Source: a bacterium (GTDB taxonomy: Bacteria > Elusimicrobiota > Elusimicrobia > UBA1565 > UBA9628). From it: a stretch of DNA of 64,000 nt. Location: positions 29,813 to 93,812 of the forward strand of contig JAJZAK010000003.1 in NCBI GenBank assembly GCA_021799485.1, written 5' to 3'. Both the position numbers and the translations under genes were made by a program. Under the pieces are notes generated by a model. It saw only the letters and a list, made by a program, of their open reading frames with translations. It was not told the DNA's origin and ran no database searches. Each line of letters begins with the position of its first letter. The stretch's first letter is position 1. Positions 29,502-30,689 of this stretch are shown here, in pieces.

Positions 29502-30689
29502 ATGGCGAAGCAGAAGTACGAGAGGAAGAAGCCGCACGTGAACATCGGGACGATCGGGCACGTGGACCACGGCAAGACGACCTTGACGGCGGCGATCACG
29601 CACTATTTGGCGAAGAAGGGTCTGGCGCAGGCGAAGAAGTACGAGGATATCGACAACGCGCCTGAGGAGCGGGCGCGCGGGGTGACGATCAACGTGCACC
29701 ATCAGGAGTACGAGACGGACAAGAGGCACTACGCGCACGTGGACTGTCCCGGGCACGCGGACTACATCAAGAACATGATCACGGGGGCGGCGCAGATGGA
29801 CGGGGCGATTTTGGTGGTGTCTGCGGCGGATGGTCCGATGCCTCAGACGCGGGAGCACGTGCTGCTGGCGCGGCAGGTGAACGTGCCGCACATGGTGGTG
29901 TTCTTGAACAAGATGGACGTGGCGGACAAGGACCTGGTGGACTTGGTGGAGATGGAGGTTCGGGAGTTGTTGACGAAGTACGAGTTTCCCGGGGAGAAGA
30001 TCACGGTGGTGCGTGGATCGGCGACGAAGGCGTTGGAGGGGGACCAGTCGGCGATCGGGGAGCCGGCGATCCAGAAGCTGATGGAGGCGTTGGACACGGA
30101 GATTCCGGAGCCGAAGAGGCCTGTGGAGCAGCCTTTTTTGATGGCGGTGGAGGACGTATTTTCGATCACGGGGCGCGGGACGGTGGCGACGGGGCGCGTG
30201 GAGAGGGGGAAGGTGAAGGTTGGGGACAACGTGGAGATCGTGGGGATTCGGGCGACGATCAAGTCGGTGGTGACGGGGCTGGAGATGTTCCGGAAGGTGT
30301 TGGACGACGCGATGGCCGGGGACAACGTGGGGATTTTGCTGCGCGGGATCGAGAAGGGGCAGGTGGAGCGTGGGCAGGTGATCGTGGCGCCGGGGACGAT
30401 CACGCCGCACACGAAGTTCAAGGCGCGGCTGTACGTGCTGACGAAGGACGAGGGAGGGCGGCACACGCCGTTTTTCAAGGGGTACCGGCCGCAGTTTTAT
30501 TTCCGGACGACGGACGTGACCGGGATGGTGACGCTGCCGGCCGGTGTGGAGATGGTGATGCCCGGGGACAACGTGGACGTGGACGTGGAGCTGATCTGTC
30601 CGATCGCGATGGAGAAGGGATTGCGCTTCGCGGTGCGGGAAGGCGGCCACACGGTGGGCGCCGGCGTCGTCACCGAGATCACGGCTTGA
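29502..30689 (+). CDS. tuf: Elongation factor Tu
   Basis: [37 protein letters not shown]. Confidence 0.99.

Follow-up and report, generated by a model that had tools for sequence, protein, structure and literature searches.

A sense-strand preference for G-ending codons limited to the duplicated tuf gene of an Elusimicrobiota bacterium

In an Elusimicrobiota bacterium (NCBI GenBank assembly GCA_021799485.1), the gene for elongation factor Tu (EF-Tu), tuf, takes G over C at most of its fourfold-degenerate sites, against the C-ending preference of the other most codon-biased genes of the same genome. The gene lies at 29502..30689 on the plus strand of a 64,000-nucleotide stretch of contig JAJZAK010000003.1 (positions 29,813 to 93,812), which we call the window and to which coordinates refer unless another contig is named. 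The cause is a fixation bias for G over C that is limited to tuf. As to what drives that bias, we lean, tentatively, towards selection on decoding that is specific to tuf over a strand-asymmetric gene conversion between its two copies, with decoding as the agent that we infer.

Codon usage of tuf, its tail and its second copy

A preliminary description of this DNA, made by a model from the letters, had called tuf almost wholly G-ending, and our counts agree with it in every detail. Valine is GTG in 41 of 46 cases (GTC 2, GTT 2, GTA 1), glycine GGG in 26 of 37, threonine ACG in 27 of 30 and alanine GCG in 30 of 34; the 24 leucines are spelled CTG (11) or TTG (13) and in no other way, lysine is AAG 28 times out of 28, and glutamate is GAG 29 times and GAA once. 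The sole GAA is codon 380, immediately before the switch in usage described below, and both GTC codons are numbers 389 and 390, so that GTC is indeed absent until the last eight codons. Over all 200 fourfold sites, G stands at.81, C at.10, T at.07 and A at.02.

We counted G endings gene by gene across the genome, a check that had been proposed with the preliminary description, using 1753 genes called by an in-house simple open reading frame (ORF) and codon-likelihood caller and covering 83% of the 2.31-Mb assembly. The mean fourfold G is.340 (standard deviation, SD,.063; 1749 genes with at least 40 such sites), and tuf is the single extreme outlier: it ranks first genome-wide, and the next gene longer than 100 amino acids reaches.63. 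On a score of tuf-likeness tuf stands 8.5 SD out and the runner-up, a transposase, 4.1. The four highest GC skews among 15059 segments of 900 bp all fall within tuf (.33-.36; mean -.003, SD.073).

By effective number of codons (Nc 27.9), tuf is also the most codon-biased gene, followed by groEL, a ClpP-like gene, atpD, sufB and similar genes (groEL was located with Pfam; clpP, atpD and sufB are named from their N-terminal sequence alone). These genes make tuf's choices at two-fold sites, where tuf is optimised as strongly as groEL (CAC.93, AAC 1.0, GAC.92, AAG 1.0, CAG 1.0), and they prefer C at fourfold sites. Thus groEL has fourfold G.28 and C.67, with G/C counts of 17/33 for valine and 5/43 for glycine, where tuf has 41/2 and 26/5. 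The 18 ribosomal protein genes of the window have a G/(G+C) of.448 against.436 in 39 other plus-strand genes of the same contig (p=.62), and tsf (z -1.07) and dnaK (z 0.10) are unremarkable. The bias is therefore limited to tuf, as the preliminary description had held, and is common neither to its neighbours nor to other highly expressed genes; the flanking fusA and rpsJ use C endings freely, also as stated there (in fusA G/C counts are 21/35 for valine and 12/40 for glycine; in rpsJ fourfold C is.47). These comparisons make ordinary translational selection, with G-ending codons as the optimal ones and tuf at the top of the expression gradient, a very unlikely explanation. It can point to the extreme Nc of tuf and to the ribosomal protein genes, which lie +1.17 SD along the tuf-likeness scale, but that shift comes from two-fold sites and strand, and at fourfold sites these genes equal their same-strand neighbours. 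Moreover, tuf's preferred fourfold codons, tested as major codons, are not shared by groEL, clpP, atpD or sufB, which end in C, and the ribosomal proteins are neutral.

The preliminary description had also asked about other duplicated genes. The 20 genes in repeats do have a higher mean G (.44 vs.34, p=5e-6), but three transposase families and one paralogue pair account for this signal, which is not independent evidence. The G-richest genes after tuf at fourfold sites (.54-.59) are multi-copy transposases and a paralogue pair that we read as formylglycine-generating-enzyme-like (C55:45334-46587, C7:16153-17163, C59:41870-42412, C26:1889-2374, C15:3-794 and C33:22400-23296). Their G richness could be due to foreign origin or to something shared with tuf.

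Within tuf, the G-ending body (29502..30641) gives way to a C-ending tail made of codons 381-395 and the stop (30642..30689). The best change-point is codon 381, at 30642 (Fisher p=1.4e-6): the 188 fourfold sites of the body hold 159 G, 13 C, 12 T and 4 A, and the 12 of the tail 8 C, 3 G and 1 T. The reversion of the tail to C endings is thus as sharp as first described (C at 13/188 sites before codon 381 and 8/12 after), and the coordinate given for it earlier, 30645, is a codon-usage boundary, not the end of the gene. Where the earlier account erred was in treating the tail as special to this genome. Among 72 tuf loci with a G+C content at third positions (GC3) of at least.75, single-copy Actinomycetota included, the C fraction averages.68 over the last 12 fourfold sites and.40 over the body, irrespective of the body's own preference; two of the 72 come from genomes flagged unpublished, and no result depends on these two. 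In the present gene, as we read its sequence, the run of GNN codons in the tail (G-G-x-T-V-G-A-G-V-V) would become almost pure G if it were G-ending. That G runs are avoided in tuf is directly seen in the body, where a codon that begins with GG follows 13 of the 29 fourfold codons not ending in G and 7 of the 159 that do end in it (odds ratio 17.6, p=7e-8). Nothing in the tail pointed to an RNA element: Rfam gave no match with E up to 1, the fold z was -0.16 and no plus-strand terminator was seen. Nor does an edge effect appear at the 5' end, where G fills each of the first seven fourfold sites.

The genome has a second tuf copy, kept identical to the first, as had been supposed. It is split over two contig ends, with its first 41 residues at the end of C40 and its last 32 at the start of C20; tRNA-Thr(GGT) lies upstream on C40, and L33 (rpmG), tRNA-Trp and NusG lie downstream on C20, which is the classical tufB context. 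The two copies align with 100% DNA identity at both ends, from 29500, two bases before the ATG, to the last stop base at 30689, and their flanks diverge at once; the proposal that identity would end near 30645 did not survive. Four public runs from two studies, on sediment and on mine drainage, yielded contigs that reproduce tuf without differences. Their pieces break at 29500/29529 and 30660/30689, and the interior pieces have about twice the flank depth (in run X1, 46.9 and 53.9 against 19 and 22.7), a ratio that we take as agreement, not proof, contig depth not being a copy number. The interior of the second copy is deduced from these single pieces and was never read as one molecule, so it is with this qualification that the tract 29500..30689, C-ending tail included, would be one of concerted evolution across the whole coding sequence. 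Contig breaks likewise fall within tuf in a congener (G001), where another contig carries a second tail. As to the surroundings of the gene, most relatives carry a tRNA-Gly(TCC) about 200 bp upstream of tuf (e.g. G036:C78, G015:C10, G005:C67, G004:C22, G039:C3, and G011:C58 and C87); in the genome studied it is tRNA-Thr(GGT) that precedes the tufB-type copy, and tRNA-Gly(TCC) is elsewhere (C17).

Ancestry, recurrence and silent-site evolution

Codon usage so unlike the rest of the genome might suggest that tuf is foreign or that the assembly is chimeric, and the preliminary description had asked for a tuf phylogeny on that account. A tuf gene was shown in 18 of 41 genomes searched, the studied genome included (E up to 1e-100), with many of the relatives' matches at contig ends, as expected for a collapsed repeat. 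EF-Tu identity falls with taxonomic distance, from 98% in the genus through 85-91% in the family and 77-84% in the order to at most 75% outside, and a tree of 40 EF-Tu proteins (11 from the family, 7 from the order and 22 chosen outsiders) is congruent with genus, family and order: the family forms one side of a branch with support of 99/98, and the studied tuf is sister to that of its congener with 100/99. Exact contig pieces cover tuf and both junctions in the four runs, which speaks against a chimera. Finally, the congener's independent assembly has a tuf with fourfold G of.85, so that two species of the genus have kept the bias although their tuf genes differ at 64 codons. On these grounds transfer and chimerism were rejected, and we give them next to no probability.

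The same bias is met far from this genus. In a survey of 101 tuf loci from relatives and many phyla, fourfold G reaches.94 in a metagenome-assembled genome (MAG) of Rokubacteria; Vicinamibacterales follow with.77 and.74, Acidobacteriota with.64-.72, one MAG each from Chloroflexia and the alphaproteobacteria with.72 and.70, respectively, and Fretibacterium with.64. G/(G+C) across these groups is.73-.95, and in each such genome tuf stands well above the flanking fusA and ribosomal genes. The same oddity occurs in several unrelated groups, and so some tuf-specific force shapes these silent sites. It does not extend to groEL, of which we examined nine genes in five genomes with a G-biased tuf and found none to be G-biased (G.19-.49, C.42-.64); C is at least as frequent as G in eight of them, and the ninth has G.49 and C.48. 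In the studied genome's own family, tuf fourfold G runs from.37 to.85 with biased and unbiased genes adjacent in the tree, which means that the trait changes quickly. Among relatives, valine, alanine, threonine, proline, leucine and serine turn to G first, and glycine and arginine last. In the alphaproteobacterial MAG, the second tuf copy (L117) has a one-base gap at about nucleotide 1111 and is otherwise nearly identical to the first; either this copy is frameshifted or the assembly is in error.

Even the choice of amino acids in the genus seems to be drawn towards G endings. Replacements specific to its EF-Tu run from Asp(GAC) to Glu(GAG) and from Ile(ATC) to Met(ATG) or Val(GTG) about 13 times, against about 5 in reverse, small numbers both; the columns, in a comparison of L001 and L089 with 15 relatives, are 48, 131, 138, 165, 170, 195, 200, 209, 238, 288 and 358. 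A wider footprint at non-silent positions (G1, G2, C1 and C2; Glu/Asp, Lys/Asn, Gln/His and Met/Ile) showed no consistent shift.

How fast these silent sites evolve bears directly on the cause. Between the studied genome and its congener G002, tuf differs at 33 of 194 fourfold sites (.17), and its neighbours, summed over rpoB, rpoC, rpsL, fusA, rplD, rplW, rplB, rplV and rpsC, at 738 of 1899 (.39). The silent sites of tuf thus evolve at less than half the local rate, which is the opposite of what a raised mutation rate would give and is what a fixation bias predicts, at a scaled strength of about 2.5; a raised mutation rate was rejected accordingly. An extreme GC skew confined to one highly transcribed gene could also bring to mind a strand-specific mutational bias from very heavy transcription, with C lost from the non-template strand. 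This we consider highly improbable: besides the low divergence, fourfold T is not raised (.07), the co-transcribed neighbours are unaffected, and at NAY two-fold sites, where a C-to-T change is silent, C is enriched (CAC.93 in tuf vs.51 in the genome, AAC 1.0 vs.71). Cytosine avoidance or deamination was rejected on this last ground.

Selection might instead act on some property of the tuf mRNA or DNA other than its decoding, with purine loading against pairing with abundant RNAs, resistance to nucleases or to Rho, and recombination signals as the candidates. The force does look nucleotide-level and uniform across the boxes, the sense strand of tuf is 62% purine, and the avoidance of G runs shows selection on the sequence itself. 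Predicted folding, however, is hardly changed: native tuf comes out at -36.8 kcal/mol per 120 nt, less than one SD away from recodings to genome usage (-38.2, SD 1.5, n=40), and synonymous shuffles within the gene fold at -37.7 (SD.7, n=40), so that an unfolded mRNA found no support as the cause. C is increased, not avoided, at NAY sites, another abundant mRNA, groEL, goes the opposite way, and fourfold sites in transcribed regions usually favour C, at least in the part of Chen et al. 2016 available to us (PMC4844684). We regard a non-decoding property as an unlikely cause, if less so than those weighed above.

Decoding, gene conversion and known systems

Under the decoding model that we provisionally prefer, fixation would favour sense-strand G over C in every fourfold box, with a scaled strength of perhaps 2.5-4, and would act on a tuf pair that gene conversion holds identical, conversion itself only spreading each fixed change to both copies. 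The agent would be selection on the decoding of one very abundant mRNA. NNG codons are read by tRNAs with C34 and also by those with U34, and NNC codons by the single G34 tRNA that groEL, clpP and atpD use; under this model tuf would be written in a codon 'dialect' separate from theirs. Local constraints would lie on top of this, with G runs avoided before glycine codons and the glycine- and valine-rich last 15 codons staying C-ending. Several observations argue for decoding: the exceptions occur at the level of codons (13 of the 29 are followed by a GG codon), the boxes turn in an order, with glycine and arginine last, the two-fold sites are optimised as in groEL, the bias has been held in two species, the genus has its own amino-acid replacements, the low silent divergence points to fixation bias and not to mutation, and the pattern converges across phyla.

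All three anticodon types exist for each fourfold box, with one gene per anticodon except for tRNA-Gly(CCC), the reader of GGG, which has two and is the only truly duplicated elongator tRNA among 49 ARAGORN calls. Its genes, C19:16605-16677 and 25327-25399, lie outside the window, one base apart in sequence and 8.7 kb apart in position. A 95-nt tRNA-Arg(ccg) (C9:4373-4467) and one tRNA-Val(gac) (C18:24650-24723) in the ARAGORN list look spurious by eye, and the true set of duplicated tRNAs is therefore smaller than the list suggests. By a pattern search of the 41 genomes, two or more CCC genes occur in the studied genome (G000) and in G023, G024, G013, G038 and G031, and one each in the congeners G001 and G002.

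At the same time, a number of points weigh against the decoding model. The copy number of tRNA-Gly(CCC) does not seem to track the use of GGG in relatives (G011, whose tuf uses GGC, belongs to a genus with a case of duplicated tRNA-Gly(CCC)), and the best match to CmoB, which makes cmo5U34, scores 18.3 bits, below the 23.8 cut-off, in a genome that is 90% complete. No named agent explains why tuf alone should be affected when groEL, clpP, atpD and sufB prefer C, when no groEL gene is G-biased in the five other genomes with a G-biased tuf, and when the ribosomal protein genes show no G shift beyond that of their strand. Moreover, by a hand calculation, the G/C log-odds of nearly every box differ from those of C-biased relatives by roughly +3 to +4, and so uniform a shift looks more like one nucleotide-level force than like eight separate tRNA effects.

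Such a force is offered by strand-asymmetric biased gene conversion between the tuf copies, in which G/C differences would be resolved more often to sense-strand G. A possible route would be a fixed strand polarity of the heteroduplex with mismatch repair that ignores C.C, a pyrimidine-pyrimidine pair, and aborts G.G, and such a drive would act only inside the converted tract and hence on tuf alone. We hold this to be possible but doubtful. It explains the tuf-only effect, the copies being identical from 29500 to 30689, and also the roughly uniform G shift over all boxes; it is a fixation bias and as such fits the low silent divergence of tuf, and MutS and MutL are both present. Of 10 G-biased genomes examined, nine carry two copies and the tenth is a fragmentary MAG; four aligned pairs from G-biased genomes are near-identical. 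High-GC3 loci have a median G/(G+C) of.64 where the genome has at least two copies (n=28) and of.38 where one was found (n=20; p=1.7e-5), an association that is confounded by phylogeny, most single-copy genomes being Actinomycetota. The available text on Salmonella tuf (PMC5485169) gives the idea some substance: repair lowers conversion about 1000-fold and filters conversions by mismatch type, poorly recognised transversion mismatches converting preferentially, and at 59 nt from the 3' end the rate of conversion drops by a factor of 100-500.

Other data count against a conversion drive. Near-identical tuf pairs without a G bias are found in Massilia (99.3%), Pseudoduganella (98.6%) and Solidesulfovibrio (96.1%), and the Rokubacteria genome, with a tuf G/(G+C) of.95, has four groEL paralogues that are 95.3-99.4% identical, have unrelated flanks and show a G/(G+C) of about.48-.50, although most of the fourfold differences among them are C/G. 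That MAG holds five groEL genes in all (L140, L144, L145, L146 and L147), and the identity of the four extends over groES-groEL, an apparent case of concerted evolution of chaperonin paralogues, to judge by the sequences. Further, the 5' end of tuf is without an edge effect, the C tail occurs also in lineages where only one tuf was found, local identity between copies and G are unlinked within the gene (rho -.03 to +.08, 5 pairs), Glu, Lys and Gln have not become commoner overall, and the literature searched held no documented strand-asymmetric conversion bias. Of the earlier proposal that repeated conversion with a second copy made tuf what it is, the identical copy and the limitation of the bias to tuf have thus stood up; that conversion caused the G bias is doubtful, near-identical pairs elsewhere being without it.

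Conversion of a more familiar kind matches tuf in part. GC-biased gene conversion, a fixation bias tied to recombination that raises GC3, is reportedly at work in bacteria and strand-symmetric (Lassalle et al. 2015 are said to have described it). GC3 is indeed raised in tuf (.91 vs ~.83 in its neighbours), but G and C do not rise alike: on one strand G is about 8 times C, and TTG, TTT and CCT are enriched.

Concerted evolution of tuf is already known, as is strong codon selection on it. The former is well documented, Acidobacteria and Chloroflexi included (PMC6053082), and our pair resembles the tufA/tufB pairs of Salmonella (PMC5485169) and of the prokaryote survey (PMC6053082) in having a str-operon copy and a tRNA-tuf-rpmG/secE-nusG copy, identical only over the coding sequence and set in unrelated flanks. 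It differs from those pairs, as far as the available portions of the two papers go, in being identical to the base at both ends; those portions also report no G-over-C codon asymmetry, and in PMC6053082 'GC content' has 0 occurrences and 'codon' 1. As for codon selection, the accessible part of Brandis and Hughes 2016 (PMC4786093) has tuf as the classic example of a gene whose silent changes cost measurable fitness.

In Salmonella, tuf shares its optimal codons with the other highly expressed genes; the tuf studied here runs counter to groEL, clpP and atpD at its fourfold sites. The closest precedent for gene sets that depart from genome-optimal codons is Mycobacterium bovis BCG, a high-GC bacterium in which, according to the part of PMC5114619 at hand, some gene sets prefer ACG over the genome-optimal ACC and the choice between the two sets state-specific translation through shifts in G34/U34 tRNAs. 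That case differs from ours in concerning a stress regulon and mainly one amino acid; ours concerns one housekeeping gene and all eight fourfold boxes, and is known from sequence alone. With the same measure, sense-strand fourfold G vs C, Chen et al. 2016 found selection to favour fourfold C in 71.5% of 1550 genomes, the more so with expression (PMC4844684, the portion available), a general preference that tuf here reverses, making it an exception to the rule.

Our literature search found no description of a G-ending bias that is limited to tuf, opposite to other abundant genes and recurrent across phyla. In Thermus thermophilus, tuf reportedly has G at ~60% of third positions (Kushiro et al. 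1987 are said to have noted this), which is possibly the same phenomenon, met there in a single gene.

Regardless of the agent, tuf is a standard reference for 'optimal' codons and a phylogenetic marker, and its silent sites, in several phyla, obey a separate rule that runs contrary to groEL and other abundant genes. If this is correct, codon-adaptation indices trained on tuf would mislead in such organisms, and a universal gene would be subject to a force of a poorly documented kind, whether a codon dialect particular to the gene or a conversion drive with strand asymmetry. These alternatives predict different effects of the loss of a copy on the bias and of recoding on EF-Tu output. Should the drive be real, strand-asymmetric biased gene conversion would be acting on one of life's most conserved genes, writing sense-strand G into tuf over long times in many slow-growing high-GC phyla, against the codon preference of abundant genes.

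The neighbourhood of tuf

The assignment of the gene rests on an ORF of 395 amino acids with the Pfam families GTP_EFTU (7.5e-65), domain 2 (6.4e-19) and domain 3 (2.2e-39), and its setting is the str-operon order fusA-tuf-rpsJ, with elongation factor G (EF-G) upstream and S10 downstream by Pfam. The fusA gene (27399..29486, plus strand) has the EF-G domains and ordinary codon usage (fourfold G.33, C.55), and its start is unfixed, the ORF frame being open from 27111. A purine run at 29480..29497, 5' of the tuf ATG on the plus strand, is likely the Shine-Dalgarno region and is unlike that of the second copy. On the other side, rpsJ (30713..31039, plus strand; Pfam Ribosomal_S10) is likewise ordinary in its codon usage (fourfold G.40). 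Upstream of the rplL-rpoB-rpoC-rpsL-fusA-tuf-S10 cluster, tRNA-Ile(GAT) and tRNA-Ala(TGC) lie adjacent at 12664-12816, the usual arrangement of an rRNA-operon spacer. An antisense ORF of 1112 amino acids (27312-30650, minus strand) runs across fusA and tuf; it is not a gene, and owes its length to sense third positions that are almost without A and hence leave no antisense stop codons.

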